Under the pieces are notes generated by a model, which was not told where the DNA came from, made no database searches, and worked only from the letters and a program-made list of their open reading frames with translations. From a virus, in the IMG/VR virus record IMGVR_UViG_3300028837_004134, positions 19,417 through 83,416 of that record: a DNA stretch of 64,000 bases, one strand, 5' to 3'. Positions 5,264 through 25,901 of the stretch are shown piece by piece. The first letter of the stretch is position 1; every line of letters starts with the position of its first letter. The position numbers were made by a program, and so were the translations under genes.

Positions 5264-5266
5264 CGG

Positions 5267-8672: not shown

Positions 8673-8743
8673 TTCCGTTCTCCACCAACAATTCGAGCCG
8701 AGGTGTGCCGTCGGCGCATACCACGGCGAATTCATAAGGTAGT

Positions 8744-8772
8744 ATTATAAGACCTGATAAACGTCAGGGCAA
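8744..8772 (-). promoter_or_regulatory. Sigma70 promoter with overlapping palindromic operator
   Basis: TTGCCC-N17-TATAAT; CCTGA-N6-TCAGG at 8753-8768. Confidence 0.7.
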
Positions 8773-8888
8773 TAGGAAAATGTACATAAAACCACAAATA
8801 ACGATTTTAGGGCATGGTGGAGAGATAAAGACCGCTGGCGGATAGGGGGAAGTTGGAGAAAAGAGACTCGCGGATGTGATGGTCGTGA

Positions 8889-9338
8889 TCAGTCCGTTTG
8901 ATCTTGGACCAGCTTCTCCCACATCCTGCGCTGGCGGTGCCAGTGAGGAACGGCGGCTACGGGGCGGACGTCTTTCTCCATGATCGGATCACGACCCGTA
9001 GTAGTGCGGGGAAGGAACAGGATTTCTTCTTGGATGTCCGGAGCAAGATTCAAGAGACTCATGATTTGCGTGATGCGGGCGCGCGTCACGTAACCCAGGC
9101 GGGCAAGGTCGGCATAGTCACTCACTTCGCTGTTTTGGATCAAGCCGGCGAACCGAATGGCGAGCGCCATCAACCGGGAGATACGAGGCATGTTGCCAGC
9201 TTCGACGTTTCGCTTTTCAGGGTTTGGCTCTAATGCCCGTTTCACTCTGCCTCGGTGCCTGCTCTTGGGTCGAAAGGTCCAGGTAACCTCCAGGGCGCTT
9301 GAACCAGGATCGACCTTTGTCGGATCATCTTGTTTCAT
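8889..9338 (-). CDS. Recombinase-associated small HTH-like protein
   Basis: ALAIRF..YADLARLGYVTRARITQIMSLLNLAPDIQE; coupled to the recombinase; paralog at 59884-60342. Confidence 0.8.
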   Translation of the reverse strand: MKQDDPTKVDPGSSALEVTWTFRPKSRHRGRVKRALEPNPEKRNVEAGNMPRISRLMALAIRFAGLIQNSEVSDYADLARLGYVTRARITQIMSLLNLAPDIQEEILFLPRTTTGRDPIMEKDVRPVAAVPHWHRQRRMWEKLVQDQTD

Positions 9339-10942
9339 TGCGATTCCTTTTCATTGGACGGGCTCTTTTCCGCGCAAAGCGCCTTGATGCCAAGCGACCG
9401 GAATGTCACCTTTATGCTTTCGTCTCTGCCGTCGTAGCCGATGCGCTCGATTAAGAGCTTGATGATCCGGGATTGCTCCCGAGAGTTAAGTGACTTCCAA
9501 ACCGGCGTGAAGGCCGACAAGGACCGCGCTATTTCCTCTTCGTCTACCGCTTCCCTCTGCAGGGTGATGATCTCATCTTCGATCTCCGTCATACGCTGCT
9601 CGGCGTTACGAATCTGATCCTGGAGATCGGCCAGTTGGTCAATAGTGGAACTGTCGATTGAAATGCCCGATGGTTCCCCGATGAGCTTCCGCAGTCTTAT
9701 GTGCAAACGCCTGAGTTGCTTTTTCTGGACTCGTTGTTCACGGTTCAGTTCCGCAAGGCGGGTTTCACTCTTTGCCTGAACCCGCCTCACCGTCTCTGCG
9801 ATGATCTCCTGGTTGGAGCCGATCCCATGGATATGTTCCACTATAAAGGACTCGATATCATGGGCGTTGATAGATTTCGTTGGGCACGCCGACCACCCTC
9901 GTTGCTGAGCATTCAAGCAGACATAATAGCGGTAGCGTCTGTTCTTCTTAACGGTATAAGTGTGCATCATGGCAGTGCCGCAGGGGACGCAATAGAGTAG
10001 CCCTCTTAGAAGCGCTCCGTACTTGCTGCGCACGTCTATTCCGCCACTGCGTGCGTTCTGCCTTAGCAGATCCCGGCCCTGCTGCCACAGGTCCTCGCTA
10101 ATAATCTGTTCGTGTTCCCCAGGATAAATCGAATCCTTGTATCTTACTTTTCCAGTGTAGATTACATTGGTAAGCAAACGGAAAAGGCTATTCTTGGTGA
10201 ACTGCTTACCTCCGCGCTCCCGTCCCTTTTTGGTGACCCAGTGTTTCGTATGCCAGTTTCGTCGATTGAGTTCCTGCACGACGGTGAGCAGCCTCTGGCG
10301 GTCGAGATACAGGTCGAAAATCGCACGAACCTGTTCAGCTTCCTCCTGGTTGACGACGAGTCGGCCAGCCTGTGAATCAATGTCATAACCCAACACCGGC
10401 ATCCCACCGGTCCATTTGCCCTTTTTTCTCGCTGCCGATATCTTGTCCCGCGTGCGCTCGGAGATGATCTCCCGCTCGAACTGGGCGAAGGAGAGCAGGA
10501 TGTTCAGGGTAAGGCGGCCCATTGAACTGGTCGTGTTGAACTGCTGGGTAACCGAAACGAAACTCACACCGTGCTTGTCAAAAAGCCCGATGATGCGAGA
10601 AAAGTCGAGCAGCGAGCGACTCAAGCGATCTACCTTGTAGACCACCACACAATCGATCTCACCATTCTCGATGTCCGAGATAAGGCGTCTGAGTGCGGGG
10701 CGTTCCATGTTACCACCAGTGAAGCCGCCGTCGTTATAAGCATCGGGTTGGCAGACCCAACCCTCATGCTGCTGACTTCTGATGAATGACTCGGCCGACT
10801 CCCGCTGGGCGTCCAGACTGTTGAACTCCTGGTCGAGCCCTTCGTCTGTGGATTTGCGGGTGTATATTGCACAGCGGATGGTTCCATTGTGATTCGGGCA
10901 TATATCTCCTGGCGTAGTGTAAGCCCGACTTCCGGAATTCAT
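9335..10942 (-). CDS. Large serine recombinase (resolvase + recombinase + zinc ribbon)
   Basis: YTRKST catalytic Ser, VYKVDRLSRS, FAQFERE, CxxC..YYVC..CP, coiled coil. Confidence 0.95.
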   Translation of the reverse strand: MNSGSRAYTTPGDICPNHNGTIRCAIYTRKSTDEGLDQEFNSLDAQRESAESFIRSQQHEGWVCQPDAYNDGGFTGGNMERPALRRLISDIENGEIDCVVVYKVDRLSRSLLDFSRIIGLFDKHGVSFVSVTQQFNTTSSMGRLTLNILLSFAQFEREIISERTRDKISAARKKGKWTGGMPVLGYDIDSQAGRLVVNQEEAEQVRAIFDLYLDRQRLLTVVQELNRRNWHTKHWVTKKGRERGGKQFTKNSLFRLLTNVIYTGKVRYKDSIYPGEHEQIISEDLWQQGRDLLRQNARSGGIDVRSKYGALLRGLLYCVPCGTAMMHTYTVKKNRRYRYYVCLNAQQRGWSACPTKSINAHDIESFIVEHIHGIGSNQEIIAETVRRVQAKSETRLAELNREQRVQKKQLRRLHIRLRKLIGEPSGISIDSSTIDQLADLQDQIRNAEQRMTEIEDEIITLQREAVDEEEIARSLSAFTPVWKSLNSREQSRIIKLLIERIGYDGRDESIKVTFRSLGIKALCAEKSPSNEKESQ

Positions 10943-11484
10943 TCTCGTTCATCCCTCCTCTCGGTTTCATGGTTTCCATTGCTACGTACTTTGCTTCCGG
11001 TGAGACCGAAGAAAAGAAAGCCGTTCCATTTATTCCCAGTCACTTCACGTGCGATGGCGCTGAGTGATTTGTAGCGGCGATCTTCGTACTCGAACCCCTC
11101 GTCAAGAACCTTGACCACGACGGTCTTGTCACGGAACTCCCGCACAAGAAGCGTGCCCGGCAGAGGAAGACGGGAATCACGGGAGGTACTGACTCTTCCG
11201 CTTATCGTCCTACTGCGCATCTCGGCCGATCCGTACTTGTATGGATCGCGGGGAGTACGGATTCTCAGGTCAGCGTCGTTGGCTAATTCTTCAGCCCGGC
11301 GGCGGGCCCGTTGGGAAAGATCACCTTCAGCCAGAGACTGCAGTCGCCAGGCGATACGTTTGCGTAGGAACTCCTTGTGGTGGGAGCGAGTCTCCTCACC
11401 GAAGACGTCGAGGTATTTCTCCCGCAGCTCCCCGACAGTTATCCTGCCTAATTCCTGGACTTCCTTGTACGTCTCTGCGTTCAT
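10939..11484 (-). CDS. DUF2924 family protein
   Basis: RIAWRLQ..PGTLLVREF..YKSLSAIAREVTGNKWNGFLFFGL. Confidence 0.9.
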   Translation of the reverse strand: MNAETYKEVQELGRITVGELREKYLDVFGEETRSHHKEFLRKRIAWRLQSLAEGDLSQRARRRAEELANDADLRIRTPRDPYKYGSAEMRSRTISGRVSTSRDSRLPLPGTLLVREFRDKTVVVKVLDEGFEYEDRRYKSLSAIAREVTGNKWNGFLFFGLTGSKVRSNGNHETERRDERE

Positions 11485-11538
11485 CTCCAAACCTCCATTC
11501 TTCTCTTCGCAGCGTTAAGTTACCTATGAATGAAGGCC

Positions 11539-11742
11539 TTAGCGGCTCGAACTATCAAGGTGATTCTCCGTAAACGGCTCAGATTCTACGACTTGCGCCA
11601 CATCGGTAGGGATTGATGGGTACTCGGGCGATGGTGAAAGACGTCTTGACTTGAGATGTCTGAAGCAGCCTCCAGCCAGGATTGAAGCAATCTCTGTTGC
11701 GACCTCGTCCGGTTCCGTTGGGAGGTGATCATCGTTATCCAT
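11539..11742 (-). CDS. Small hypothetical protein
   Basis: EIASILA motif; paralog at 62514-62741. Confidence 0.55.
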   Translation of the reverse strand: MDNDDHLPTEPDEVATEIASILAGGCFRHLKSRRLSPSPEYPSIPTDVAQVVESEPFTENHLDSSSR

Positions 11743-11782
11743 GTGTTTCTCCTTCGCAGTAAAAGCGCCAGCATACGATAGA

Positions 11783-11813
11783 TACCTACCGGAGGTGTTC
11801 TTGAATCGTCGAA
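11783..11813 (-). promoter_or_regulatory. Element sigma-type promoter motif copy 2
   Basis: TTCGAC-N15-CCGGTAGGTA upstream of the DUF2924-recombinase operon. Confidence 0.7.
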
Positions 11814-12009
11814 CCGGGTTCGTCAGAAACCACCGGGCTGTTAACCAGCGGGAATCTGGAAATGGAGAAACGGAGAATCAGGAGGAGATATTCGCGGGCA
11901 TCGGGTGCATATCGTCCGGTTTGTTTTTCACCCCGGAGGGAACGTCTCGGAACGGAGAATCAGGGATGATGTACGGATGCGCTTAACCCCGCGCAACTCA
12001 AACAGAAAC

Positions 12010-12077
12010 GACAAAACCCCGACCGGTTGTCCCGTCGGGGTTTCGCGTTAAACAAAAACCGCCAGAGTTGGCGGCTA
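12010..12077 (-). terminator. Tandem hairpin terminators downstream of the tRNA 3' end
   Basis: AGCCGCCA-actc-TGGCGGTT-TTTGTTT and AAACCCCGAC..GTCGGGGTTT; conserved at 63055-63127. Confidence 0.65.
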
Positions 12078-12529: not shown

Positions 12530-15199
12530 TCATTTGAGCAGCACCATCTTCCGGCTTTCGACGAATTCACCGGCTTCAAGACGGTAGAAGTAAACACCGC
12601 TGGCGACGTCGCTGCCATCCCAGGTACATGAGTATTCTCCCGGGCTGAGGTATTTATCTGCCAGAGTTGTTATCCTCTGCCCCATGACGTTGTAGATTTC
12701 GAGCTTTGCGTGGGATCCCCGAGGCAAGGAGAACCTGATCTCAGTAATCGGGTTGAACGGGTTCGGGCGGTTTTGCGACAAGAAGAACGATCCTGGTAAC
12801 TCTCTCTCGCTTGGATTCTCTGCATCATTGTAATCCCCTGGTGCAGGCCGAGGCTGATCATCCATGCAACCTTGCACAATATTGAAGCCCTTCTCGTTCT
12901 CCTTCACGTCTAAATTCTCATAGAGCGGAACACTTGGCCAATTACGGACAAAGATTCTGTAGCTACCTGCAAGAACGTCCTCAAACGAGTATACACCAGC
13001 AGCATTAGTCGTGACAGTATCTATGCTATCCGTCAGCGTGTTCACGAGGCACACATACAGACCGTTAATAGGGGTAGCATCGTCAAGGGTAGGGTCACAG
13101 TAATGTTTTGCCCAGCCCTTGATCTCAAACCCAGGCGTGCAGAAGTTCCTGTAGGGCGAACTCCAATCACCCCAGCCGCAATCATTATGAGCACGAACAC
13201 GCCAGTAGTACCTGGTGCCTTGAGCGAGACCGGAGGCGTTGTAGTAAGACGGTTGGGCATCTATCACCGGCAAACTGAAATCGGGGTTGGTGTCCACCTG
13301 GATCTGGTACTTGTCCGCACCACTGACATCACTCCAATCAAGATGGACCGGCTGAGACTGCTTCCTTGCCTCACTATCCGGACTCACATACAACGGTGCA
13401 GGCGGCGCCGATATGACCGTCACTGTCCTGTCCGGACTATCACCGCTGCAACCACAATCGTTACATGCCCGGACATCGTAGGTGTAATCACCTATGACAT
13501 TCTTGGTATAGCACTTCTGACTCACGTTGCCCACGTTGTCCCAGGAACCACCATTCTCCCGAATCTCATAGAATGTGGCGCCAGACACAGGTGACCAACT
13601 CACACAAAACTCGTTATCCACGCACACCGGGTTCGGCGACGCTGTGGGCTGAGGAGGTGGAGGGGGGGGACCATTCACCGTCACACATCGCTGAGGACTA
13701 TTACCGCTGGTCCCACACTGGTTCTTTGCCTTTACTGTGTAGCAGTATTCGCCCGGGGACGGCTTCGACGTGCACCAGCTTGTTGTATTGCCGACATTCT
13801 GACAACTGCTTCCCACACAGACCTCATACGAAGTCGCACCCGACACCGAACCCCATGTCAGGCAGTATTGTGAATTCACGCATACCGGATTGGGCGAAGC
13901 CGACGGTGTGCCCGGTGTACCGGGAACATCGACTGCGTAAAAGTTACGAGTTGAACACCAGTAGCCACAACCGCAATCATCATTGCATCCCGCCACCCGC
14001 CAATAATACGTCTTCCAGGGATCAAGGCCGCTTGCATAATAATGTGATGTGGATGTATAGACGTCTATCACCGGGCTGGAAAAATCTGAATTGTCATCTA
14101 CCTGCAAATGATATTCTGTCGCATCCCCGACGTCCGACCAGTCGATAGGTACCGACGGATTAACACAAACCGTTGTGTTATGTGGTACCAATGGCACCGG
14201 TGCGCCGGGAACATCGACTGCGTAAAAGTTACGAGTTGAACACCAGTAGCCACAACCGCAATCATCATTGCATCCCGCCACCCGCCAATAATACGTCTTC
14301 CAGGGATCAAGGCCGCTTGCATAATAATGTGATGCGGATGTATAGACATCTATCACCGGGCTGGAAAAATCTGAATTGTCATCTACCTGCAAATGATATT
14401 CTGTCGCATCCCCGACATCCGTCCAGTCGATAGGTACCGACGGATTAACACAAGCCGTTGTGTTATGTGGTACCAATGGCACCGGTGCGCCGGGGGTTTC
14501 GCAGTTTATATCCAAAAAGTATTCACCGCTTGCCGTATTATTGCACCATACTACCAAACCATACCAGTCAGTCGACTGCACTGTATAAGTAAAGGTCTCA
14601 TCCCCCGATATGCCATTAACATCTGACTTCCTGATTTGTGCAGAGCGGGTGGCGTAGTATGCGCTGTTCTCTGATTTAAATAATGCCACCCCTAAATCAA
14701 TTGTTCCATTTGTTATATCCAATGTAAAGGTAAATGTCTCCCCTGCTTCTAAATAAACATCCCAGATTTTGACCACATGATATGAGTCCCAATTATAGGC
14801 TCCAAATCTTCCGGGTGGGTCTAGATATTCGCTTCCGTTTTCGTATTCAACGTAACACCCGACTGATCCACTGTATTTCTTAATCTTTATCCCCTCCCAT
14901 CCGGTTGGTGAATGATTGTAATCAGTCACAACATAATCCACTGCATCGCCTGACCATTCAGACGATGCCACCAAGTTGCTAAATGAAGTTTCAGTATATA
15001 ATTGAATATCCCAATCATCGCCACTCATTGGCCTAACCCCTACAACAGCCCAGAAATAATCACCTTGATTGTATTTGAAATACCACGGCGTAGTGTATCC
15101 CAAGATGTTAATAACCTCTCCATCGGAAAGTACCTGCGCTGGAAATACAGGGGAAGCCATTATCACATAAAACAGGGAAATCAATATCAACGTTCTCAT
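12530..15199 (-). CDS. Secreted Cys-rich FN3-repeat protein with T9SS type A sorting domain
   Basis: Signal peptide MRTLILISLFY..; YHLQVDDNSDFSSP..YYWRV FN3 units; C-terminal LSQNRPNPFNP..SGVYFYRL..KMVLLK. Confidence 0.9.
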   Translation of the reverse strand: MRTLILISLFYVIMASPVFPAQVLSDGEVINILGYTTPWYFKYNQGDYFWAVVGVRPMSGDDWDIQLYTETSFSNLVASSEWSGDAVDYVVTDYNHSPTGWEGIKIKKYSGSVGCYVEYENGSEYLDPPGRFGAYNWDSYHVVKIWDVYLEAGETFTFTLDITNGTIDLGVALFKSENSAYYATRSAQIRKSDVNGISGDETFTYTVQSTDWYGLVVWCNNTASGEYFLDINCETPGAPVPLVPHNTTACVNPSVPIDWTDVGDATEYHLQVDDNSDFSSPVIDVYTSASHYYASGLDPWKTYYWRVAGCNDDCGCGYWCSTRNFYAVDVPGAPVPLVPHNTTVCVNPSVPIDWSDVGDATEYHLQVDDNSDFSSPVIDVYTSTSHYYASGLDPWKTYYWRVAGCNDDCGCGYWCSTRNFYAVDVPGTPGTPSASPNPVCVNSQYCLTWGSVSGATSYEVCVGSSCQNVGNTTSWCTSKPSPGEYCYTVKAKNQCGTSGNSPQRCVTVNGPPPPPPQPTASPNPVCVDNEFCVSWSPVSGATFYEIRENGGSWDNVGNVSQKCYTKNVIGDYTYDVRACNDCGCSGDSPDRTVTVISAPPAPLYVSPDSEARKQSQPVHLDWSDVSGADKYQIQVDTNPDFSLPVIDAQPSYYNASGLAQGTRYYWRVRAHNDCGWGDWSSPYRNFCTPGFEIKGWAKHYCDPTLDDATPINGLYVCLVNTLTDSIDTVTTNAAGVYSFEDVLAGSYRIFVRNWPSVPLYENLDVKENEKGFNIVQGCMDDQPRPAPGDYNDAENPSERELPGSFFLSQNRPNPFNPITEIRFSLPRGSHAKLEIYNVMGQRITTLADKYLSPGEYSCTWDGSDVASGVYFYRLEAGEFVESRKMVLLK
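13921..14493 (-). repeat. Two near-identical 285-bp FN3 coding repeats
   Basis: Copies start at 13921 and 14206. Confidence 0.9.
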
Positions 15200-15332: not shown

Positions 15333-17495
15333 CTATTCTCGGCCTTCGACCATGCGAAGCTGGCCTTCGGTGACCCAACCGGAGTCGGTCCAGTAGGTTA
15401 CGGCGTCGCGGAGAGAGCCGTAATACGCCCGTGCGTCCTCAATCGGTGGCAGTTTGCCTTCTGCGACCAGGTGCCGGCGGTGGGTTATCAGGAAATCGTT
15501 CATGGCAACTTTGATGACTCGCAGGCGGTGATCAATGGTATAGATCAGCGAAGGCGTGTACTCGAATTTGACGGATTCGGAGATATGGACCTGAATTTGG
15601 CCGTCGTCAGCCAATCGTATGCCGTTGGGGCCGGGGGAGTTGTACCCCATAGGTAGCTCGCCGGGAAGGCAACCAATGTCTGATTTGGGAAAGAGAATGT
15701 AGCCCACTTGATTTCCTGGAATCCACCAGGGGTATTCGTTTTCTATACCAGGTTCGATGGGCGAGAAACCCTGAATGGAATCAGGTCTCAGTACTAGCAA
15801 GGCAACGCATTTCTTCCTGTTATAGAATCCTGTAAATAGAATCTCCTGCTGGCCGTCGCGGTCTATGTCTATCATCTTCTGGACGACCCCGTGCCCCCAG
15901 TGAATATACCATCCCAGCGAGTCGCCGTTCGGATTCCACAGTCGAAGATGTGCGCGAGCCGGTAGCTCCTGGTAAACCGTGGAGATGATTATTGGTCCGT
16001 TCCTCGTCTCCGCAATCCCTAGATAGCCCGCATCATATTGCACTCCTGTGGTGTCTTTCGGATATCTTCCCAGAATGGCTGCGTTTCGCATCCACCGAAG
16101 CTGCCCGTCATGCGAATAGAACCGGAGGAGCGCCCTGTCGTTACATACTTCATCGATTCTCGGCAGGAAGACGACCTCGTTCTTGCCATCGCTGTCGAAA
16201 TCATACAACCGGCCAAAACATGTGGCCCAGAGATTATCGCTGGTGATCTTGGAAATAGGACACGACAGCACGTCAGCCCATAACAAAGTACTGTCCCGGT
16301 TGTAGACTTCAAGTCCGTTAGTTGCTGGGTTGGCGATGGCATAGACAGGATTATCGTCAAACCAGGGCATGTAACTGGCCGGAGCCACCAGGTAGTACAA
16401 CACAGCCAGCATGACCAGCAGTGCCGGAACCTCTACCCAAACCGACCGCTTTGCTTTCCATGCCCTGCGTGCGACATAAGCGGCTGCTGAAGACCGCTCA
16501 GCCAATATCAAACGGGGATCGTTGACCACGGCCCCGATGGTCTCCACTCCGGCCAGATCGAGCCTTCGGCCAGGATCCTTCTTTTCCAGCTCCAATACCT
16601 GTGTCTGTGCGTCGGCCAGGTGCTTGCGGGGAATCACCAGGAGACTCAGATACGAATGGAAGGCCCGATAGATCTTGAGTTTGAGAGCATCGCTATCTAC
16701 CGGACTGAGTCTGCCATCGGCTGACAGGGCTCCGCTGAACGCCACCGAAGGCGAAACCGAAAGTTTGTCGCGGAATACCTCTGTTCTAGTCATGGCAGCG
16801 ATGGCACCAACCGCAAAAGCCACGCCCAGGGAATCACCTGTAAATCTAGCACCGGAAGAGTCAACGGCATAATCAAATCGGTAGCGCTTCTTGTGTGGCA
16901 ACCCGTATCGAGTTTCGAGGAATGCCCGTGCGGCCTTGATGGAATCGCGAGCCTGGGCAAGGAATCGATCATCGGGTTCACTCACCGGATTGCGAACAAC
17001 GACGTCATCGTCTTCTGCTTGTGAGGATATCCTGGAGGCGGTGACGATCAGATTCAATATGCGGCCTCTTGGGAGCAGATCCAAATCCGGATAATGTTCC
17101 ACGAAAAGGCAGGTGATGCGCACAGAACTTCCCGGCGACGAATGTAAAAGCGGAGATTTTTCCGCACCCATATCGATCTTGCCAGCCAGGCACGAAAAGG
17201 CATCGATATCATCCGGAGACACGACGACAGTTGGCTGTGTCTTCAGAAGATCAACCAGTCTCTCAACAGATTCAGTTTCCTCAGGTAGGAATTCCTGGGG
17301 ATCACTCTTGCCGGCTGCGATGGCGAGAGTCGGGATAAACTCACGGAAGTAGGACTCAATCCCTGCACCTTGATGGGACGCAACGGGATCAAAGAACCGC
17401 AGCCCGCACAGTAACCTCAGTTCAGGCATCTGTGCCAGCTTCAGGTCGTGGCGAAGTCGTGATGCCGCCCTTTCGATTTCTAATATGGAATTCAA
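15333..17495 (-). CDS. Single-pass membrane protein: cytoplasmic Lon (S16)-like protease domain + extracytoplasmic FG-GAP/beta-propeller-like domain
   Basis: TGDS222LG, VAFSGALSADGRLSPV, LKLK274, LLVIP match the Lon proteolytic domain; TM ~352-372 after RRAWKAKR; DFDSDGKNE and DIDRDGQQE repeats. Confidence 0.75.
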   Translation of the reverse strand: MNSILEIERAASRLRHDLKLAQMPELRLLCGLRFFDPVASHQGAGIESYFREFIPTLAIAAGKSDPQEFLPEETESVERLVDLLKTQPTVVVSPDDIDAFSCLAGKIDMGAEKSPLLHSSPGSSVRITCLFVEHYPDLDLLPRGRILNLIVTASRISSQAEDDDVVVRNPVSEPDDRFLAQARDSIKAARAFLETRYGLPHKKRYRFDYAVDSSGARFTGDSLGVAFAVGAIAAMTRTEVFRDKLSVSPSVAFSGALSADGRLSPVDSDALKLKIYRAFHSYLSLLVIPRKHLADAQTQVLELEKKDPGRRLDLAGVETIGAVVNDPRLILAERSSAAAYVARRAWKAKRSVWVEVPALLVMLAVLYYLVAPASYMPWFDDNPVYAIANPATNGLEVYNRDSTLLWADVLSCPISKITSDNLWATCFGRLYDFDSDGKNEVVFLPRIDEVCNDRALLRFYSHDGQLRWMRNAAILGRYPKDTTGVQYDAGYLGIAETRNGPIIISTVYQELPARAHLRLWNPNGDSLGWYIHWGHGVVQKMIDIDRDGQQEILFTGFYNRKKCVALLVLRPDSIQGFSPIEPGIENEYPWWIPGNQVGYILFPKSDIGCLPGELPMGYNSPGPNGIRLADDGQIQVHISESVKFEYTPSLIYTIDHRLRVIKVAMNDFLITHRRHLVAEGKLPPIEDARAYYGSLRDAVTYWTDSGWVTEGQLRMVEGRE

Positions 17496-17513
17496 CTCCC
17501 CATGCCCCCCATC

Positions 17514-18326
17514 TTATTGATAGAAATACATTTCCAGCTTCTCGACGGCATCAATATCGCCAAAAGATGCCTGGTCGGAGACCACTGGCTGTATCTGAAC
17601 TAATTGCTCTGTTCCAGCCACACGAACTGCTACCTTCAGAGTCGCCTTCATGTGCACTTTCGACAACTCAAGAATCTGGATGTCAAGACGGTAGTTATGA
17701 CCTTCACCGGTCAACGCTACTTTGACGCGGTCACCACTGGTCGACTTGAGTTCGGCAGTGTCCCCCGTCTCGTCGGCTCCGAATGGGCTCAAGATAAAAG
17801 TGGCCTTTGGCGGTCTCACTTCGGCGGCAGACAGCTCCTTCTCAGGCCAATCAACGACACCCAGATTCACGCGGCCTTGAGTGTCAGTTACGAATTCCTG
17901 ATTCCCCAAGGGCAATTTCACCAGGACGTTCTCATACAGAGTAGGATCATCAGCCACGACATACAGCCATGTTTCCTTGGTATGAGCGTCTCGAACGGCT
18001 CGAAGCAGGACCTGTTGATCTTCCGAGGCAAGCGTGATTGCATCTTTCTCGGTGTCTCGTTGCGCACCCTGTGCGGCCAGTTTCAGCGGTGTCGGTCCGC
18101 CCGGGGTAGCGTCCAGTGGCAAGGGCATCAGGCGTATAATATCTGGCGTCGCCGAAGCATCCCAAACGGCCTGAAGGCGCTCCAGCTCCTTGTTCAGCTG
18201 AGTCAACGTGAACCGGCACTGGGGACAGTCCTCCAGATGGCGCTCCAGACTTACCTGGTTTGGGGCGTCTTCCTCCAGCAGATACCTCTCCCACTGCTCG
18301 CTGGTTGGGCATTCCCATTTCTGCAT
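17514..18326 (-). CDS. Soluble zf-HC2 anti-sigma-like protein
   Basis: C6..H30LEDC34PQC37 ZAS motif; Pro/Gly linker ending LKLAA; beta-rich C-terminal domain; no TM. Confidence 0.75.
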   Translation of the reverse strand: MQKWECPTSEQWERYLLEEDAPNQVSLERHLEDCPQCRFTLTQLNKELERLQAVWDASATPDIIRLMPLPLDATPGGPTPLKLAAQGAQRDTEKDAITLASEDQQVLLRAVRDAHTKETWLYVVADDPTLYENVLVKLPLGNQEFVTDTQGRVNLGVVDWPEKELSAAEVRPPKATFILSPFGADETGDTAELKSTSGDRVKVALTGEGHNYRLDIQILELSKVHMKATLKVAVRVAGTEQLVQIQPVVSDQASFGDIDAVEKLEMYFYQ

Positions 18327-18424
18327 ACTACTATCTTTCCCGCTTCCTCAACAAAACACGGAATTACTTCCTCCAACCTGTCACAATGTAATAGGTGCAG
18401 GGCACCACGCCTGCAGATTTCTAT

Positions 18425-19453
18425 TCATAAGTATTGTTTCCTCATGGCTTCAATGAAGCCCTTTTGGACTGACTCAGCCAGGTATTCGAATCTGGTTCGC
18501 AGGGTCTGCCTGTAGTCTTCAAGGGTCAGGCTTGGTTTGTGCACGTGAAGATACTCATAGTAACTCTGTGCCGGGCCACCATCAGCACAATCGGCTACCA
18601 GATCGGAAAGAGCTAGCCTAAACACTTCGACGACATCTGGATGTAGCTTTCCTGTATCCTGATATCGAGCGAGCTTGATCTCCACATTCTGAAAAGCCTG
18701 ATCGGTCGCACGGTCAATGGCCACCGACAGAAGAGGGTCATCGCGATTGCGGGGAACCTCATTCGCCAATTGTTGGGCCTTGATCTCAGAAGTGGTTTCA
18801 CGCAGGGCAGAGAACAGTATCTCGACCTGAACAGGTTTTTGGAGGCCAGCAGTACGAGCGACCTGCAAGAGAATTGCATGGACCAAATCCGTGAGATTCC
18901 CGTAATGCGCACCTTGCTCGTTGATGATCCTGACCAACTCGTCATGGCTTAGAGGAGTCTCATTCGCTCTGAAGTCGGCTATATTTGTCAGGGTGACCCA
19001 TTCGGGTTTATCAACGGGAAAAACCACCACGCGCTCATCCTGGCGAATTACTCGATGAAGATTCCTCCAGAGGCGAGCGCTCAGAGCATCGTTCTCCCCC
19101 CACCGGTGGAACAACTCCTGTGATGCGGCTCTGACCACCACGGACTTGAATTTCAGGAACAGGGGGGTATCATCGTACTGAAGCATGTTCGCCAGTGCCT
19201 TTACCAAAGGCGAATCTGGCGCGTCCTTACTGAACAAACCTGAAAGGACGGATGTCGCCATTTGCTCAACCGATGTCTCCTGAGCTTGAGACGCTGCATG
19301 TAGCCGCCCCCAGAGCTTTTCCCGGACAATAGACGCTGCCAGTCTAACTAATCGGCCAACCGGCATGGCGTTGGAGGTCCCTCCGCAGTACTGACGGAGA
19401 CATCCAGCGACCTCAGCAATGAGATTATTGTCGGAGGCCGCTTGGTATCTCAT
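18425..19453 (-). CDS. Helical protein, putative highly divergent ECF sigma-like factor
   Basis: SVEQMATSVLSGLF..FKSVVVRAASQELFHRW resembles sigma region 2; next to a zf-HC2 gene; ATGA overlap with hsdR. Confidence 0.5.
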   Translation of the reverse strand: MRYQAASDNNLIAEVAGCLRQYCGGTSNAMPVGRLVRLAASIVREKLWGRLHAASQAQETSVEQMATSVLSGLFSKDAPDSPLVKALANMLQYDDTPLFLKFKSVVVRAASQELFHRWGENDALSARLWRNLHRVIRQDERVVVFPVDKPEWVTLTNIADFRANETPLSHDELVRIINEQGAHYGNLTDLVHAILLQVARTAGLQKPVQVEILFSALRETTSEIKAQQLANEVPRNRDDPLLSVAIDRATDQAFQNVEIKLARYQDTGKLHPDVVEVFRLALSDLVADCADGGPAQSYYEYLHVHKPSLTLEDYRQTLRTRFEYLAESVQKGFIEAMRKQYL

Positions 19454-22452
19454 TCTTGTTGACTCTCCTCATCCCGAATCTGTTCGTAGACCTGTTTGAG
19501 CAGGTGCTGGCCGACGATGTCCTGAAATTTCTTTTCGTTCATGAACTTTGCGGTTATCTCCTCGTTCTGTTCCATCCGGTCGATAAAGAGGCCCTCCAGC
19601 GCCTTCAGGAACACGTAACCGAAGTTCTCCATCGTGTTGGCGAGCGCCGCTTGGCGCAGGTCGGTGTCGGCCACAGCATCTCCCAGGATGGAATCAAGGA
19701 AGAGCTGGTCAGCAGGTTTGAACTCGGTGCCGAATCTCTCATTGAGGATATCAATCAGTTTGGACAGTTCGATCTCATCTCCCCGGGCGATGCCTGTACC
19801 TACGGAAGTTGGCCCGGATACTGGTTCCTGCTTGCCGGTTTCCAACTTGATTAATCCCTCGCCAATCTTCTGGAGGCGGTAGTACTTAAGCGCCACCTCG
19901 TCGTCGAAATTGTAGACCGGCCCTCGGTCACCTCTCGGTAATTTAGTGAGCAAGAATCGAATGTAGGAGTATAGTTTTTCCAAGTCCGAGTCCTGGAAGG
20001 GGATTACCTGCGCCATAAACGAGTACAGATTCCGGAAGGCGACAAGCGTCTTGCGGAATTCCTCCCGGACCTCCTCTTCAAGCTCGTTGTATCGACCCAC
20101 AGCCGGATCGATGCAGGCATTCATCCGGGCGTGATCTGCGGTTGTTTGGCTGCGTTTCGGCTTATAGAAGACCTTGCAGAATTCCTCGACCTCGGCCTTG
20201 TAGTAGACCTGGTGTGCGTCTAACTTAGCCTGGAGTTCGTAGAGTTGTCTTGCGTCGGCCCGCTCGCCGATGAGTGTCTGCTCGTAGTAGGGCTGGAACG
20301 CCGCCAGGATTTCATCCGGTTCGTTGACGAAATCTAGGACGAACGTGTTTTCTTTGCCGGGATGGGTGCGGTTCAGGCGCGAGAGTGTCTGCACGGCCTG
20401 AATGCCTGCCAGCCGCTTGTCTACATACATAGTATGAAGAAGCGGCTGGTCAAAGCCTGTCTGATACTTCTCGGCCACGAGAAGCACCTGATATTCGTCC
20501 GTGCCGAACCGCTCCGGCAGCTCCTTCTCTCGAATGCCCTTGTTCATTCCGACTTCGGTGTATTCGACATTCGGCGCGTCCGGGTCAATAACCCTACCGG
20601 AGAAAGCAACCAGCGTCTTAATTCCTGTGTAACCTTTTTCGGCGATGTACTTGTCAAATGCCTGCTTATACCGGACAGCATGGAGGCGACTGGAGGTGAC
20701 CACCATCGCCTTGGCTTTTCCGCCAATCTTGTGCATGGTGAAGTGGCGGAAATGTTCGACCATTACCTCGGTCTTTTGCGCGATGTTGTGAGGGTGCAAG
20801 CTCATGAACCGTGCAAGCGCCCGGGCAGCCTTACGCTTGTCCACCCTGGGATCATTCTCAATAGATTTGATCAGCCGGTAGTAGGTTTTGTACGTAGTGT
20901 AGTTATTGAGCACGTCGAGGATGAAGCCTTCTTCGATGGCTTGCCGCATGCTATAAAGGTGAAAGGGAAGAGGCTTGCCGTCCGCGCCAGGAGTGCCGAA
21001 CACCTCCAACGTCTTGTACTTGGGTGTCGCGGTGAAGGCGAAGAAGCTGATATTGGACTGGTGGCCGCGCTTGGCCATGGTCTTGAGGATTTCCTCTTCG
21101 TAGTCGGGCAGCCCTTCCTCCTCGGCCTTCGCCCTGGCCTCTTCTTTGATTGCCGCTCCTGCGAGCACACCCTTGAGTTCGGTCGCCGTCTCGCCGCCCT
21201 GGGAGCTGTGCGCCTCATCAACCAGCACCGCATATCGGCGCGTGGGTAAATCGCCCATTTTCTCGGTGACGAAGGGAAACTTCTGTAACGTCGTGATCAC
21301 GATCGGCACCCCGGACCCAAGGGCCTCGGCCAATTGGGTCGAGTTTATGTCAATCTTCTGAACAACACCCTGTTTGTGTTCAAACTGATAGATTGTGTTT
21401 TGAAGCTGTTGGTCAAGTACGACCCTATCGGTCACCACGATGATCGAGTCGTAGATCTTCTCATCCTGGTCATCATAGAGACTCGCCAACCTGTGAGCCA
21501 ACCACGCGATTGAGTTCGACTTCCCGCTGCCAGCTGAGTGCTGGACAAGGTAATTGGTTCCGGTGCCGCGTTCGCGCGCATCAGCCACGAGTTCCCTTAC
21601 GCAATCAAGCTGGTGATAGCGCGGAAAGATCATCGTCTCACGCTTAACATTCTTGCTTCCGAGTCTCTTCTCGTCGGTCTGGAGATGAATGAACCGCGCA
21701 AGAATATCGAGGAAACTGTGCCGTTCTAACACATCTTCCCACAGATAAGCTGTCTTGCAACCATGCGGATTCTCGGGATTGCCGGCTCCGCCACCGTAGC
21801 CCCTGTTGAAGGGCAGGAATCTCGTGTTCCGGCCAGAAAGACGCGTGGTCATGTAGACCTCGTCAGTGTCCACGGCGAAATGAACGAGGGAACGTTTCTT
21901 GAACTGGAAGATCAGATCAGACGGATCACGGTCGTTCTTGTACTGCGTCACCGCATGCCGCCAGGTCTGGGCGGTCATGGGATTCTTGAGTTCCAGCGTG
22001 GCGACAGGAATGCCGTTCAGGGCGAGGGTCACATCGAGAGTGTTGCCATGCTTGGCCGAGTAGCGCAGCTGGCGTGTGATCGTGAGCCGGTTGGCCACAT
22101 AGAGTTTCTGGGTGTCTGGGTTCATCCCGCTTGCAGGTGCGAAGTAGGCCACGCGGAACAGCTTGCCAAAGCACTTGAATCCGTGTCGCAGGACGGAGAG
22201 ACAGCCTTCGTGCTCGGAGTTGAGTGCCCGGCATAGGTCGTCAAGCAGAGTCTCTTCAGCATTCTCCTTTTGAAGGTCGGCGAGGTACTCCCACTCCTTG
22301 GGTTGAGTCTCCCGGATAAAAGCCAGCACCTCCTGCGGGAACAGGCAACGCTCCGGGTCGAAAGTGTCGTGATCGCATCTCACGTAACCACCTGTTGTCG
22401 TCAGGTGGTGTTCAATGGCAGTCTCGAATGCCCTCTCGTTTGTCTGCGTCAT
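19450..22452 (-). CDS. hsdR: Type I restriction enzyme R subunit
   Basis: LD..NGIPVATLELKN nuclease motif, QHSAGSGKS, DEAH, FTATP, QTGFDQP, QTLSRLNR. Confidence 0.95.
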   Translation of the reverse strand: MTQTNERAFETAIEHHLTTTGGYVRCDHDTFDPERCLFPQEVLAFIRETQPKEWEYLADLQKENAEETLLDDLCRALNSEHEGCLSVLRHGFKCFGKLFRVAYFAPASGMNPDTQKLYVANRLTITRQLRYSAKHGNTLDVTLALNGIPVATLELKNPMTAQTWRHAVTQYKNDRDPSDLIFQFKKRSLVHFAVDTDEVYMTTRLSGRNTRFLPFNRGYGGGAGNPENPHGCKTAYLWEDVLERHSFLDILARFIHLQTDEKRLGSKNVKRETMIFPRYHQLDCVRELVADARERGTGTNYLVQHSAGSGKSNSIAWLAHRLASLYDDQDEKIYDSIIVVTDRVVLDQQLQNTIYQFEHKQGVVQKIDINSTQLAEALGSGVPIVITTLQKFPFVTEKMGDLPTRRYAVLVDEAHSSQGGETATELKGVLAGAAIKEEARAKAEEEGLPDYEEEILKTMAKRGHQSNISFFAFTATPKYKTLEVFGTPGADGKPLPFHLYSMRQAIEEGFILDVLNNYTTYKTYYRLIKSIENDPRVDKRKAARALARFMSLHPHNIAQKTEVMVEHFRHFTMHKIGGKAKAMVVTSSRLHAVRYKQAFDKYIAEKGYTGIKTLVAFSGRVIDPDAPNVEYTEVGMNKGIREKELPERFGTDEYQVLLVAEKYQTGFDQPLLHTMYVDKRLAGIQAVQTLSRLNRTHPGKENTFVLDFVNEPDEILAAFQPYYEQTLIGERADARQLYELQAKLDAHQVYYKAEVEEFCKVFYKPKRSQTTADHARMNACIDPAVGRYNELEEEVREEFRKTLVAFRNLYSFMAQVIPFQDSDLEKLYSYIRFLLTKLPRGDRGPVYNFDDEVALKYYRLQKIGEGLIKLETGKQEPVSGPTSVGTGIARGDEIELSKLIDILNERFGTEFKPADQLFLDSILGDAVADTDLRQAALANTMENFGYVFLKALEGLFIDRMEQNEEITAKFMNEKKFQDIVGQHLLKQVYEQIRDEESQQE

Positions 22453-22943
22453 TTGCTTGGTCCCAAGACGAAGCGGGCTCGCTCGTGTCGGAGCATCTCA
22501 TAGGGTGTCATGACCTTTATTCCAAGGCCAATGCAAACATTCGGGATTTTGATCTTCTTTGTTGAAGGCGATGCAATCTCGTGGGTCACGACAGTGTCTC
22601 CGTGAGCCAGGGCGTGGGCCACCAGGTAGTAGTCGGCAACCTGAAGGAATGTACTCACAGCAACAGGTTCGTAGTTTTGGCTCGTCGCCCATTCACTGGC
22701 TGAACCAAGGGCAGGCAAAATTGCAGAATCGGGTTTCAGGAAGAAACTCGAACCGCGTTGCACAGCCCAAATTGCAAGATCATCCTCGCCCGCCTCTATC
22801 TCATCACCAACCTTTTCGATACTAAAAACCCGTTTCGCTGTGTTGTTCACGGCAAGCCATTCCCAAAAAGCCGGACAGAAATCGAGGCCATAATGGAGGT
22901 TCTTTGCCTGAATAAACACATTGGCATCAAGTAGGTAAGCCAT
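22449..22943 (-). CDS. DUF4411 family PIN-domain protein
   Basis: YLLDANVFIQA..ADYYLVAHA..VVTHE..KIKIPNVC. Confidence 0.85.
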   Translation of the reverse strand: MAYLLDANVFIQAKNLHYGLDFCPAFWEWLAVNNTAKRVFSIEKVGDEIEAGEDDLAIWAVQRGSSFFLKPDSAILPALGSASEWATSQNYEPVAVSTFLQVADYYLVAHALAHGDTVVTHEIASPSTKKIKIPNVCIGLGIKVMTPYEMLRHERARFVLGPSK

Positions 22944-24085
22944 CAGAGCACCCCCAGGCTATGGCCAAGTTCGTGGAACGTCGCAAGTTTTGAGAAGCCG
23001 AGCAAACGGAAGGCGTCGCGATGTAATGTCTGACCCTCCAGTGTGCTGATGACAAGTGCGCGGGCAAATCGCTTGCTCACTCGAGCAGCTTGTGTCCAAT
23101 AGAAGTTGCCGCCGCTACCTTTTGGAATCGCCCGCAGCCGTTCCACTTCCGCGAAGAAGGCATCCCAGAGTACCTCGCGGGTGATGCCGCCTACGTCATG
23201 GATACGCCGTAGAATGACGAGCGTGCTCACCTTGAAAAGCCGCGCCAGACGGCTGACCTCGTCATCTAACTCATCACTCTGTCGATACTCCTGCCTAATC
23301 ACCGAAAGGGGCACCAAGAGCTCTGCGGCAACCTGGTCGCACCACTTCTCGACATGATGTGACGGTGAAGTAACAGGCCCCACGTCGGAGAGCGCGGATT
23401 CACCGACCCAAAGATGAGCCAGTTCATGCGCGAGTGTGAACATTTGAGCGGATTTCGTGTCAGAACCATTTATGAACACGAGCGGTGCAAACTCATCCAC
23501 AAGCGCAAAACCTCTGAATTCTTCCGGGTCCAGTTTGCGCCGATTGTTGCTTCCTACAACTCCGCTTACCATCACCATCACGCCAAAGTTGTCCGTCTGC
23601 TCAACGAAGCGGCGCAGAGCTTCGGTCCACGTGGGTAGTCGTCGTCTCTCTTCAATATCAAACCTCAATGAATGCCGAATGGCTGCGGCAACTGTGACAA
23701 TGTCACTTGACGGATCAGCGGACCCGACGAATGAAAGCGGCTCTTCTCCTACGGATCGAGCGAAATCGTGATACCACTCCTGACGCTGTTGGCAGATGTA
23801 AATAGTGTCAAGCAGATCCGGGCTGGGGTGGCCAATATACTCGTTACCGATGGTACGGAAGTCGGGAATAGGGACGGTCTCGACTGGCGGTTCCGGGAGA
23901 AACAGGTAACCGACAGGCAAACGAGTGGCCTTGGCAAAGCTTTCGAGTTGTTTGAGAGTCGGATTAACCTCACCTCGCTCCCAGAGTTCAAGTTTAGGAA
24001 ACTTCTTGGCAAGGCCACCTATGGTTTGTCTGGAACGTTCGCATGCCCAGCGCAGCAATTCAGGTTTGACATCGACACGTATCAC
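22943..24085 (-). CDS. HTH + ImmA/IrrE family metallopeptidase
   Basis: N-terminal XRE-like HTH; FTLAHELAH; EKWCDQVAAELLVP. Confidence 0.9.
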   Translation of the reverse strand: MIRVDVKPELLRWACERSRQTIGGLAKKFPKLELWERGEVNPTLKQLESFAKATRLPVGYLFLPEPPVETVPIPDFRTIGNEYIGHPSPDLLDTIYICQQRQEWYHDFARSVGEEPLSFVGSADPSSDIVTVAAAIRHSLRFDIEERRRLPTWTEALRRFVEQTDNFGVMVMVSGVVGSNNRRKLDPEEFRGFALVDEFAPLVFINGSDTKSAQMFTLAHELAHLWVGESALSDVGPVTSPSHHVEKWCDQVAAELLVPLSVIRQEYRQSDELDDEVSRLARLFKVSTLVILRRIHDVGGITREVLWDAFFAEVERLRAIPKGSGGNFYWTQAARVSKRFARALVISTLEGQTLHRDAFRLLGFSKLATFHELGHSLGVL

Positions 24086-24128
24086 GTGGTCTCCTTTTTC
24101 ACGCCGATCTCGCCTGCCACAGCCGCCG
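24081..24128 (-). pseudogene. Degenerate copy of the hsdS 3' end
   Basis: AAVAGEIGVKKET vs HsdS AAVTGKIDVRKEV; 37/48 nt match to 25897-25944. Confidence 0.65.
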
Positions 24129-24181
24129 TATTGGGGTGGTGCGCAATCACCGTCGCGATCCCCGTTCTACAATAGCCTCCG

Positions 24182-25234
24182 TCATCGACCCTTTTCCGAT
24201 TCTGATACCCAGCCTTTGTCGGCCAGACGCCTCCATGCGACGTGGATATGTTCTTGACGAAACATCCGCTTTCGGTCATTCCAACTGTGAACCTGTCGCA
24301 CCGCCTCATCAGACGTCCGCGCAGGGTTGTCCGTGTGCTTTGCGACCCAATGAACTGACGATAGAAGCTCCATGCCATAAGGCGTTTCAAAGCCTTCAAT
24401 CAATTCTGCCACTTGTCCCAGACGTGTTCGACTCTCTTGTTGTGTTTCCAGAAATTCGCCGGCTTTTTGGGAAGCACCGGGAAGCAGCTCGATCTCCACG
24501 TCCGGTTTCTGTGTGTCGCCGTAACCTTGGGTGAAATGCCCTTCCATTATTTCCAGAACCTTGTTCAAGTTGTGCGCATAGGGTCCATAAAGGCCCGGCT
24601 CGTACTTCAGCCGCAGATTTTCACCCGCCTCCTGAAGGAAGTACCCGAGCTTCTGAATCTCGAGCAGTGTCAGACGATAGGCCATTTCCTTGTACTGCGC
24701 TATGAGTGTGATGAACAGCGCTCGGGCCACGGTCATCTTAGGGCGTTGCGTCCGTATCGGCATGGCTTTGGCTTCCGGCGCTCCGTGAGGCTCAAATAGC
24801 AGCACCCTAACTTCGGGAAGCGATGAAAAGGCCTTCTCGATCATTGGACGGACAACGCTCCAACTCAGACCACCAAGACCGCAGCCCAGCGGTGGGATAG
24901 CGACGGACGACACCTTCAACTTCCCAACCTCTTCAATTAGTGCTCTTAACCCTGATTCAATATCCTCCAACCGCGATTTGCCGCGCCAATGCCGTTTGGT
25001 GGGGAAGTTGATAATGTATTTGGGGTTTAGCATGGCGCCGGTTTCGAATACGAACATCTTTCCGGGGTGCACTTCTTCCGCTCGGCACGCGCGTTCATAC
25101 ACCTTGAAGTTGTCGGGGAAGGCCTTCTTGAACTGAAGGGCGATGCCCTTGCCCATATAACCGAGACAATTCACCGTGTTGACCAATGCCTCTGCTTCGG
25201 CTCTGAGAATGTTGCCTTTGGCAATCTCTATCAT
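24182..25234 (-). CDS. darG: DarG antitoxin, macrodomain DNA ADP-ribosyl glycohydrolase
   Basis: ALVNTVNC.GYMGKGIALQFK, IINFPTKRHW, PPLGCGLGGL; C-terminal YGPY..GFETPYGMELLSSVHW. Confidence 0.93.
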   Translation of the reverse strand: MIEIAKGNILRAEAEALVNTVNCLGYMGKGIALQFKKAFPDNFKVYERACRAEEVHPGKMFVFETGAMLNPKYIINFPTKRHWRGKSRLEDIESGLRALIEEVGKLKVSSVAIPPLGCGLGGLSWSVVRPMIEKAFSSLPEVRVLLFEPHGAPEAKAMPIRTQRPKMTVARALFITLIAQYKEMAYRLTLLEIQKLGYFLQEAGENLRLKYEPGLYGPYAHNLNKVLEIMEGHFTQGYGDTQKPDVEIELLPGASQKAGEFLETQQESRTRLGQVAELIEGFETPYGMELLSSVHWVAKHTDNPARTSDEAVRQVHSWNDRKRMFRQEHIHVAWRRLADKGWVSESEKGR

Positions 25235-25247
25235 GGTGACGCCTCCT

Positions 25248-25901
25248 CTATGAATAATAATACCATTCCGGCCTTACCCGCACAGGGCGGTGCAAGCTAG
25301 GCGGGAACTGGCTCATAATAGCTTCAACGTTTATTTTCATCCGGTCGGAGACAGTAGCGATCTCCTCAATCAGTTCCCAATCACAAGACCGGTGCACAAG
25401 GAATTCGGCCTGTTTGCGACGCTGGCGGTCCATGTCATTCACGTTGTCAGCCCAGTACCGCTCGTAGACCATATCCCAATCGACCTTGTCCAGGTCAGCT
25501 AGGTCATCATACCAATCCGTATATGCTGCAATGCCGTGCCCATCCGAGAATACAAAGCCGGCTCCGCTGTTCGCTACGGCCTGGGCCGTGGACACTACGT
25601 AGATCAATGGCTCCTGGCCCTCATTGTAGCCAGCAACCTGTCCGGTCTTGAGTTGAAGGAGCATCGGCGAAAGATACCCAAAGTAGAACGCTACGTAATC
25701 GTGAACAACCCCACACGGCCCGCACCCGATTTCTCTGATGTGGCGTTCTGATTGTATGTCCACGTTGTGAATCCTCTTGTACTGCAGCCCGTCATCGGGT
25801 GTGTGGATCGGTGCGTGCAAGCCGCCGCGCTGGAGGCACACGGGGAGGCTGTCCACGTGCATAAAGCGGAATATCGGCGTTGGATTCGGCACCGCCATCA
25901 C
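25248..25901 (-). CDS. darT: DarT DNA ADP-ribosyltransferase toxin (DUF4433)
   Basis: HDYVAFYF..SPML, FVFSDGH, RRKQAEFLV, PEWYY; adjacent to darG. Confidence 0.92.
   Translation of the reverse strand: MMAVPNPTPIFRFMHVDSLPVCLQRGGLHAPIHTPDDGLQYKRIHNVDIQSERHIREIGCGPCGVVHDYVAFYFGYLSPMLLQLKTGQVAGYNEGQEPLIYVVSTAQAVANSGAGFVFSDGHGIAAYTDWYDDLADLDKVDWDMVYERYWADNVNDMDRQRRKQAEFLVHRSCDWELIEEIATVSDRMKINVEAIMSQFPPSLHRPVRVRPEWYYYS

Follow-up and report, generated by a model that had tools for sequence, protein, structure and literature searches.

The 64,000-nt stretch of viral DNA analysed here (positions 19,417 to 83,416 of the IMG/VR record IMGVR_UViG_3300028837_004134, classified there as a provirus; hereafter the window) carries on its minus strand three consecutive genes that together may encode a transmembrane signalling module. 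In gene order, these are P0003, a sigma-like partner of 342 aa (18425..19453); P0002, a soluble anti-sigma-like protein of the zinc anti-sigma (ZAS) type, 270 aa long (17514..18326); and P0001, a receptor-protease of 720 aa (15333..17495). The open reading frames (ORFs) confirm the three co-oriented genes described in an original prediction that was made from the sequence alone. The gap between P0003 and P0002 is 98 nt and that between P0002 and P0001 is 18 nt, and the start codon of P0003 is shared in part with the stop of the preceding hsdR gene (ATGA, with a GAGGAG just before it).

P0001 is a single-pass protein in which a cytoplasmic helical N-domain and a Lon protease domain are followed by one transmembrane (TM) helix and an extracytoplasmic beta-propeller. 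The Lon (MEROPS S16) proteolytic domain occupies residues 123–333 (16497..17129), as delimited by profile and structure matches. Searches with the single sequence saw it weakly (NCBIfam spore_lon_C, E 9e-4; LonB in the PDB, E 0.06), and a profile of 25 P0001 homologues matched the protease domain of A. fulgidus LonB with an E of 5.6e-6, aligning the serine of the P0001 GdS motif (S222, 16830–16832) with the serine of LonB GDS and K274 (16674–16676) with the catalytic lysine. P0001 has the Lon P-domain fold, and the Ser222/Lys274 dyad on which the original prediction relied is retained in all 70 of the 70 homologues. No Walker A motif was found in P0001 and no AAA family matched it in Pfam or NCBIfam; only ~120 helical residues lie N-terminal to the protease domain. 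This helical N-domain (residues 1–120, 17136..17495; assigned from the structure model and the LonA alignments) varies between paralogous subfamilies. Because full-length LonA chains align with the P0001 model from residue 25 or 68, it resembles the alpha-helical lid that precedes the LonA protease domain.

The sole hydrophobic helix of P0001 (residues 352–372, 16380..16442) has five K/R residues before it and none after it. By the positive-inside rule, this distribution puts the N-terminus and the protease in the cytoplasm and residues 380–715 outside the cell, as had been proposed. The outer region (15351..16358) comprises an FG-GAP-type beta-propeller sensor and a C-terminal YW.DSGW tail, and the structure model is all-beta over residues 385–665. 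The FG-GAP assignment of the original prediction holds for the relatives of this domain, as homologous ectodomains pass the Pfam cut-off (L033 with 45.8 bits, L036 with 31.2 bits) and two P0001 homologues bear a precomputed PF13517, whereas P0001 itself scores 17.8 bits, below the cut-off of 26.9. Furthermore, the P0001 profile matches PL11 beta-propellers (E 6e-4).

P0002 begins with a zinc anti-sigma domain, from which a variable linker leads to a conserved domain of ~170 aa at the C-terminus, and the absence of any hydrophobic segment indicates that it is soluble. Its zinc-ligand signature, C6-x23-H30-x3-C34-x2-C37 (18213..18311, minus strand), follows the spacing C/H-x(23–26)-H-x3-C-x2-C that marks ZAS domains, as in RsrA, ChrR and RslA. 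All 19 family members examined have C6, P7, H30, C34 and C37, and in the paralogous ZAS proteins the first ligand is a histidine (H-x24-HxxxCE[FL]C, 20/20). The soluble HxxxCxxC zinc protein that had been read from the sequence is borne out by these alignments. Against Pfam zf-HC2, the family expected for it, P0002 itself scores 15.3 bits, below the cut-off of 22.2. A related soluble ZAS protein (from locus L042) does exceed this cut-off, with 24.1 bits, and profile comparison joins it to the P0002 family with a probability of 94% (E 8.8e-8). Neither a MazF-like nor a DUF2080 domain was found in P0002 by Pfam at E<=0.1, and neither P0002 nor P0003 had a useful match in PADLOC, NCBIfam or Pfam.

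P0003 starts with a helical domain resembling sigma domain 2 and ends in a helical bundle, with a small mixed alpha/beta part between them. All structural matches to its N-domain are to sigma domain 2, and the resemblance extends over residues about 7–123 (19085–19435, minus strand). To this extent, the sigma assignment of the original prediction is partly supported. On the other hand, no sequence-level sigma signal was obtained from Pfam, NCBIfam, PADLOC, PDB profile searches or hhalign: alignments of the P0003 family (A2, A4 and A5) compared by hhalign with 20 extracytoplasmic function (ECF) sigmas of the same phylum gave P values of at least 0.07, and the A2 and A4 profiles retrieved from the PDB sequences only designed helical proteins and noise. 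Likewise, Foldseek gave no match to the PDB for P0003 at E<=0.001. A sigma domain 4 was not found by Pfam, profile or fold search, residues 140–235 being barely probed by the latter as matches to the other domains took up the results; an Atlas structure search with residues 140–342 returned nothing, and the C-terminal bundle matches generic helical proteins only. P0003 would be a very divergent sigma factor, and its being one at all is the least certain point of our reading.

Despite this uncertainty, P0002 is predicted to bind P0003 through its N-terminal part. Complex prediction with P0003 and residues 1–95 of P0002 gave an ipSAE interface score of 0.78, compared with 0.00 for the best of three controls, and the runs had at least 60% of their contacts in common, with a partner pLDDT of at least 66. 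The mark set for this score is reached by 58 of 80 solved complexes and by 2 of 110 mismatched pairs, counts that hold here roughly because the prediction was run on alignments built in this analysis; likeness to solved sigma/anti-sigma complexes may also contribute to the score. The predicted interface involves the first helices of the sigma-2-like domain and residues 143–164 of P0003.

P0003 belongs to a large family. A search of 1.84 billion proteins with its A2 profile found 1191 representatives at E<=1e-3; these are mostly 330–370 aa long, and every named member is annotated as a hypothetical protein. Ignavibacteria, Melioribacteraceae and Bacteroidota supply a distant subgroup, whose alignment (A5) was used to scan metagenomes. 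In the 21 loci of this subgroup, the next gene nearly always starts with HxxxCxxC where downstream DNA is present. In three of these loci (L033, L036 and L047), the downstream protein is a fusion of ZAS, TM helix and FG-GAP ectodomain, the classic anti-sigma architecture. In three others (L041 4419–9853, L042 5980–11414 and L045 5959–11253), a soluble ZAS protein of 221–230 aa is followed by two response-regulator/DUF4388 genes and no Lon receptor; the latter pair was checked by Pfam in L042, and in L041 and L045 ORFs of matching size lie in the same places. A fused form was also seen, P0164 (951 aa), in which the P0003-like domain (residues 605–946) lies behind 600 residues without a Pfam family.

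Are the three genes of the window a unit elsewhere as well? A scan for orthologues, limited to one genome per species, found 19 other loci, all in Zixibacteria-type metagenome-assembled genomes, and in 18 of them DNA upstream of the Lon-receptor gene was present. Of these 18 loci, 17 preserve the order P0003-P0002-P0001; in the exception (L006), two ORFs (231 and 219 aa) without recognisable likeness to P0003 stand in the first slot. Across the 19 loci, the flanks share no conserved gene, and hsdR stands beside the trio in this window only. One genome of 4.5 Mb holds a second, divergent trio, with a Lon receptor that is 31% identical (E 2e-88) and a ZAS protein that is 26% identical. Among 200 sampled genomes of the phylum, 87 carry one to four Lon-receptor genes at E<=1e-10, and these receptors fall into two subfamilies that differ in their N-domain. 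In the paralogous loci, 20 of 20 (from 20 genomes) have a sigma-like gene, a ZAS gene and a Lon receptor (G[DE]S[IM]G). The co-occurrence that had been predicted for the three genes is, consequently, found in both subfamilies, and a strict module in a variable context with paralogous expansion is the pattern of a signalling system, unlike that of housekeeping genes.

The ectodomain of P0001 recurs in other receptors. Residues 380–715 are homologous to the ectodomains of the ZAS-TM proteins described above (L036, E 1e-15; tandem copies in L033, E 4e-13 and 4e-11; L047, E 7e-10). The L033 protein (7075–9486, 803 aa) carries two P0001-type ectodomains in tandem. Furthermore, P0001 residues ~350–600, which take in the TM helix and the sensor's first two thirds, also match proteins of ~700 aa (L099 2952–5045; L100 1823–3904; L101 3029–5143; L102 2945–5071) in which a histidine-kinase-type HATPase_c domain forms the cytoplasmic N-terminal half, in the same orientation as in P0001. 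The layout of the latter proteins is that of an inverted sensor kinase, and no sigma-like or ZAS gene lies alongside them. As judged by sequence homology, one sensor module appears to be joined to three alternative cytoplasmic outputs: an anti-sigma domain, a kinase ATPase or a Lon protease. As the sensor is fused elsewhere to a ZAS domain or to a histidine-kinase ATPase, the Lon domain of P0001 looks like a signalling output. Compared with the two-gene form, the trio has its ZAS domain detached, and its sensor has acquired a protease.

Where might such a protease cut? Although the linker of P0002 varies otherwise, its A84 and A85 are invariant and form part of an LAAQG motif (residues 83–87, 18066..18080, minus strand), which alignment and analogy single out as the proposed Lon cleavage site and source of an LAA C-degron. 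The motif phi-A-A-[QDKE]-[GS] is present in 18 of the 19 orthologous Lon-linked ZAS proteins, the 19th having MAAQA, and in all 20 of the paralogous ones, where it is of the LAAD[GS] type and lies ~65 residues after the zinc motif; P0227 also has it (LAADG). None of the four ZAS-TM proteins that lack a Lon partner (fused, or presumed to be) has it, and the soluble ZAS proteins without a Lon partner in L041 and L042 have IAAGG. In Ca. Cloacimonas, CalpL cuts CalpT in LAA|A, and release of CalpS depends on the LAA C-degron that the cut exposes (bioRxiv 10.1101/2024.05.08.593097). By analogy, the Lon domain of P0001 would cut P0002 after A85, and a ClpXP-type removal of the ZAS fragment would follow.

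Could the trio, then, carry a signal across the membrane by a single proteolytic cut? On balance, we favour a three-gene transmembrane module in which the receptor Lon P0001 cuts the ZAS protein P0002 at LAA|QG and frees the sigma-like P0003. In such a module, the beta-propeller of P0001 would be the sensor outside the cell and its cytoplasmic, ATPase-less Lon domain (Ser222/Lys274) the output, and P0003, a sigma-like transcription factor that has diverged far, would be kept inactive in a complex with P0002. An outside signal would bring about pairing or oligomerisation of the receptor, probably induced by a ligand, upon which the Lon domain would cut the linker of P0002 at LAA|QG. The ZAS fragment would then end in -LAA, a ClpXP-type C-degron, and be degraded, and the freed P0003 would alter transcription, plausibly that of the adjacent large secreted or type IX secretion system (T9SS) proteins. 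The earlier idea of a receptor protease acting on an anti-sigma partner gains from the swapping of the sensor, from the LAA motif and from the predicted complex of ZAS protein and P0003; the cleavage, the ligand and the output are the parts that we infer. More tentatively, the trio may represent a new class of transmembrane signalling, a one-component receptor protease, in which a propeller controls Lon and a cut at LAA|[QD]G frees members of a large unannotated sigma-like family (~1200 clusters at 50% identity, in Zixibacteria, Ignavibacteria and Bacteroidota). Searches of the literature for Lon-like or TM Lon proteins with anti-sigma or ECF factors, and for anti-sigma with FG-GAP and ECF, gave CRISPR papers only or nothing, in line with the original prediction, in which no described system with this architecture was recognised.

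The closest functional parallel is CalpL-CalpT-CalpS, to which the trio had been likened. Both have three parts, an ATPase-less Lon fused to a sensor with anti-sigma-type and sigma-type partners, and in both a helical N-domain precedes Lon. CalpT and P0002 also share an alanine-rich linker motif (LAA|A in CalpT, LAA[QD]G here), the cutting of which would leave an LAA C-degron. However, the sensor of CalpL is a cytoplasmic SAVED domain binding cyclic tetra-adenylate (cA4), whereas P0001 has a TM helix and an extracytoplasmic beta-propeller; CalpT consists of MazF-like and DUF2080 parts, whereas P0002 is a ZAS zinc protein; CalpS is an ECF-like sigma, whereas P0003 is not recognisable as one by sequence; and the gene order sigma-like, anti-sigma, protease is a further difference. 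No SAVED match was obtained in the record, although the control genomes likewise gave none. As the original prediction had stated for CRISPR, no CRISPR-like spaced repeats were seen in the window; moreover, the 19 other loci have no conserved neighbour, cas genes not having been specifically searched for. Membership of the trio in the CalpL group was rejected because there is no SAVED domain and no CRISPR link; only the Lon domain is homologous. The likeness in function survives: the trio is a functional analogue of CalpLTS rather than a member.

Other systems share single elements with the trio. ECF sigma/ZAS pairs (RsrA, ChrR, RslA) have the same H/C-x(23–26)-H-x3-C-x2-C signature and the same order of sigma gene and then anti-sigma gene; P0003, however, has ~340 aa and escapes the Sigma70_r2 and Sigma70_r4 models, unlike ECF sigmas. 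The release proposed here, by proteolysis exposing an Ala-Ala C-terminus for ClpXP, resembles that of RseA by DegS-RseP-ClpXP. In regulated intramembrane proteolysis, site-1 and site-2 proteases act, whereas the trio has a single receptor with its own cytoplasmic Ser-Lys protease, and its anti-sigma is without a membrane segment, unlike those of the RseA type. The two-gene systems of P0003-like and ZAS-TM-FG-GAP proteins found here in Ignavibacteria and Bacteroidota, all of which carry hypothetical annotations, have in common with the trio the sigma-like family, the ZAS motif in the next gene and a homologous TM helix and propeller. They differ in that ZAS and sensor form one polypeptide and Lon is absent, while the soluble ZAS protein of the trio has acquired the LAA motif as well as a C-terminal domain, and Lon is joined to the sensor. 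With LonA and LonB (MEROPS S16), P0001 shares the proteolytic fold, the Ser-Lys dyad and a helical segment like the AAA+ lid subdomain. Unlike them, it has no AAA+ core or Walker A motif, and consequently processive unfolding is not expected of it; also unlike them, it has a membrane anchor C-terminal to the protease, followed by a large ectodomain. Finally, the polysaccharide-sensing SigI/RsgI systems of clostridia, in which RsgI is a membrane anti-sigma processed by other proteases, likewise combine an atypical sigma with a non-canonical C-terminal domain, an extracytoplasmic, possibly carbohydrate-binding sensor and secreted or dockerin proteins nearby, with homology to the trio shown no further than the sigma-2-like fold.

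The alternative that survives best keeps the whole proteolytic relay and replaces only its last element. P0003 might be some other cytoplasmic effector or regulator that the ZAS protein sequesters and that merely reuses a sigma-2-like helical domain; an antiterminator-like protein, a modulator binding RNA polymerase or a transcription factor other than a sigma would be examples. The lack of a recognised sigma domain 4 and the silence of the sequence searches leave room for this reading. Nevertheless, the structural matches to the N-domain are all to sigma domain 2, P0002 bears a zinc signature known only from anti-sigma domains, and the family-wide pairing with ZAS-TM-ectodomain proteins mirrors the gene layout of ECF sigma and anti-sigma factors. 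We consider a non-sigma P0003 unlikely, if well worth bearing in mind.

The zinc ligands raise another question. Could P0002 and P0003 form an autonomous thiol-redox switch of the RsrA type, with the Lon receptor acting separately from it or against it, for instance by clearing free P0003 or the oxidised ZAS protein and so resetting the system? The first zinc ligand of the orthologous subfamily is a cysteine (C6), as in redox-active ZAS proteins, and P0002 is soluble, both of which would suit such a switch. However, paralogues with histidine as the first ligand keep the same trio and the same LAA motif, the sensor, common to anti-sigma and kinase receptors, points to an extracytoplasmic input, and the strict linkage to the Lon receptor would stay unexplained. 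A redox switch appears improbable on these grounds.

It is more improbable still that the Lon domain is a housekeeping or self-processing protease, serving quality control of membrane or secreted proteins or autoprocessing of the receptor, and that its linkage to the ZAS gene reflects co-regulation. Nothing directly ties the protease to P0002, and Lon-fold domains also occur in the non-signalling proteins RadA, ComM and BrxL. Against this stand the strict three-gene linkage across two divergent paralogous subfamilies, the co-variation of the N-domain beside Lon with the subfamily, the LAA motif that is present in Lon-linked ZAS proteins and absent from ZAS-TM forms, and the swapping of the sensor with kinase and anti-sigma outputs. 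Least probable of all is an anti-phage or abortive-infection module in a defence island, suggested by analogy with CalpLTS and BrxL, by the overlap of the P0003 start with the hsdR stop, by the upstream type I restriction–modification (RM) operon, with its HEPN, DUF4411/M78 and Macro genes and the phage-like genes beyond it, and by the provirus classification, since hsdR adjoins the trio in 0 of 19 other loci and the flanks differ everywhere, PADLOC gives no match, the sensor lies outside the cell, up to four paralogous copies occur per genome, the neighbours are typically secreted surface proteins, and no SAVED, CARF or CRISPR features were found.

If the trio is a receptor-protease module, what might it sense and control? 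The gene downstream of the trio, on the same strand, usually encodes a large secreted or surface protein. It has a T9SS sorting domain in the window and in L013, L017, L019, L027 and L028; L011, L019 and L020 have a dockerin there, L007 and L013 a C-type lectin domain, L010 a CarboxypepD_reg domain and L014 an LVIVD propeller. Together with the PL11-like signal of the propeller, these downstream proteins suggest polymer sensing, and it is our speculation that the trio senses an extracellular polymer and controls surface proteins. In the window, the downstream gene is P0005 (12530..15253, minus strand), 79 nt from P0001, which encodes a secreted, fn3-rich protein of 907 aa with a C-terminal T9SS sorting domain. 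P0005 is a candidate for a regulated target, not a proven part of the system. Its gene contains a 285-nt tandem duplication (13912–14481, 98% identity) that yields two near-identical Cys-rich fn3-like modules and looks recent.

No promoter common to the sigma-like genes of the orthologues emerged from a k-mer search of the DNA before them, and a shared ECF-type promoter was not found. In the paralogues (L080–L098), the word CTTGACA(A) occurs in the 300 nt upstream of the sigma-like gene in 8–10 of 18 cases, compared with at most 5–8 in shuffles, and CTTGACA(A) is the -35 consensus of housekeeping promoters. Since only TTGACA-type words were enriched in the paralogues, a housekeeping promoter is indicated, if anything; the search gives no support for autoregulation, and transcription of the paralogous trios may be constitutive. 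A promoter and terminator consensus scan of 12–20 kb gave counts near the shuffled expectation.

The known routes from the cell surface to transcription are two-component phosphorylation, partner switching and multi-protease intramembrane cascades that destroy a membrane anti-sigma. A receptor with its own cytoplasmic Lon that cuts a soluble anti-sigma would, if true, be a much shorter route, and the Lon-anti-sigma-sigma logic of type III CRISPR CalpLTS would be a general signalling design rather than an oddity of defence. The analysis also brings to light a large, unannotated family of ~340-aa proteins paired with ZAS proteins; if these are sigma factors, the census of alternative sigmas in the Fibrobacterota–Chlorobiota–Bacteroidota (FCB) group is incomplete. 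The conserved LAA motif offers a precise and cheap biochemical test, and the T9SS, dockerin and lectin neighbours suggest the sensing and exploitation of extracellular polymers in an uncultured, environmentally widespread phylum.

Upstream of the trio, on the minus strand, lies a type I RM operon with inserted genes (19450–30059) that resembles a compact defence island. It consists of hsdR (19450–22452), a DUF4411 gene (22449–22943), an M78/IrrE-like peptidase gene (22943–24085), a Macro-domain gene (24182–25234), the S subunit gene (25898–27190), a RiboL-PSP HEPN gene (27187–28041) and hsdM (28038–30059). The possibility that the trio is part of this operon was rejected, as hsdR is absent from all other loci. 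Beyond the operon are genes for a gpA-type terminase large subunit (31282–32946), a D12 adenine methyltransferase (34084–35325), a DnaG-type primase of 1119 aa (40199–43558) and a RecD2-like helicase (47237–49720), phage- or plasmid-like genes that fit the provirus label. We treat this defence and phage setting as local because the trio is present in many genomes without those genes, and a defence function of the trio is unlikely.

Two further large genes on the plus strand encode a 993-aa protein with a NACHT NTPase and a C-terminal FGE-sulfatase-like domain (44206–47187), which could be a NOD-like receptor (NLR)-like sensor, and a 1103-aa protein (50017–53328) with two class I S-adenosylmethionine (SAM)-methyltransferase domains in its C-terminal half and no family match in its N-terminal 650 aa. 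A module of ~7 kb is present in two diverged copies (4850–12070 and 54850–63120), in direct orientation, 50 kb apart and 78–89% identical, which flank the trio, the RM island and the phage-like genes. Each copy carries a large serine recombinase gene (9335–10942 and 60339–61946), a DUF2924 gene (10939–11490 and 61943–62608) and a LexA-like S24 repressor gene, of which that of the first copy (7549–8208) was scanned. The copies may represent a pair of related integrated elements or belong to a single composite one. At the start of the window, 306-nt units are repeated four times with 65–88% identity (1418–2544) inside an ORF of 1059 aa that runs off the window start and encodes a repeat protein.

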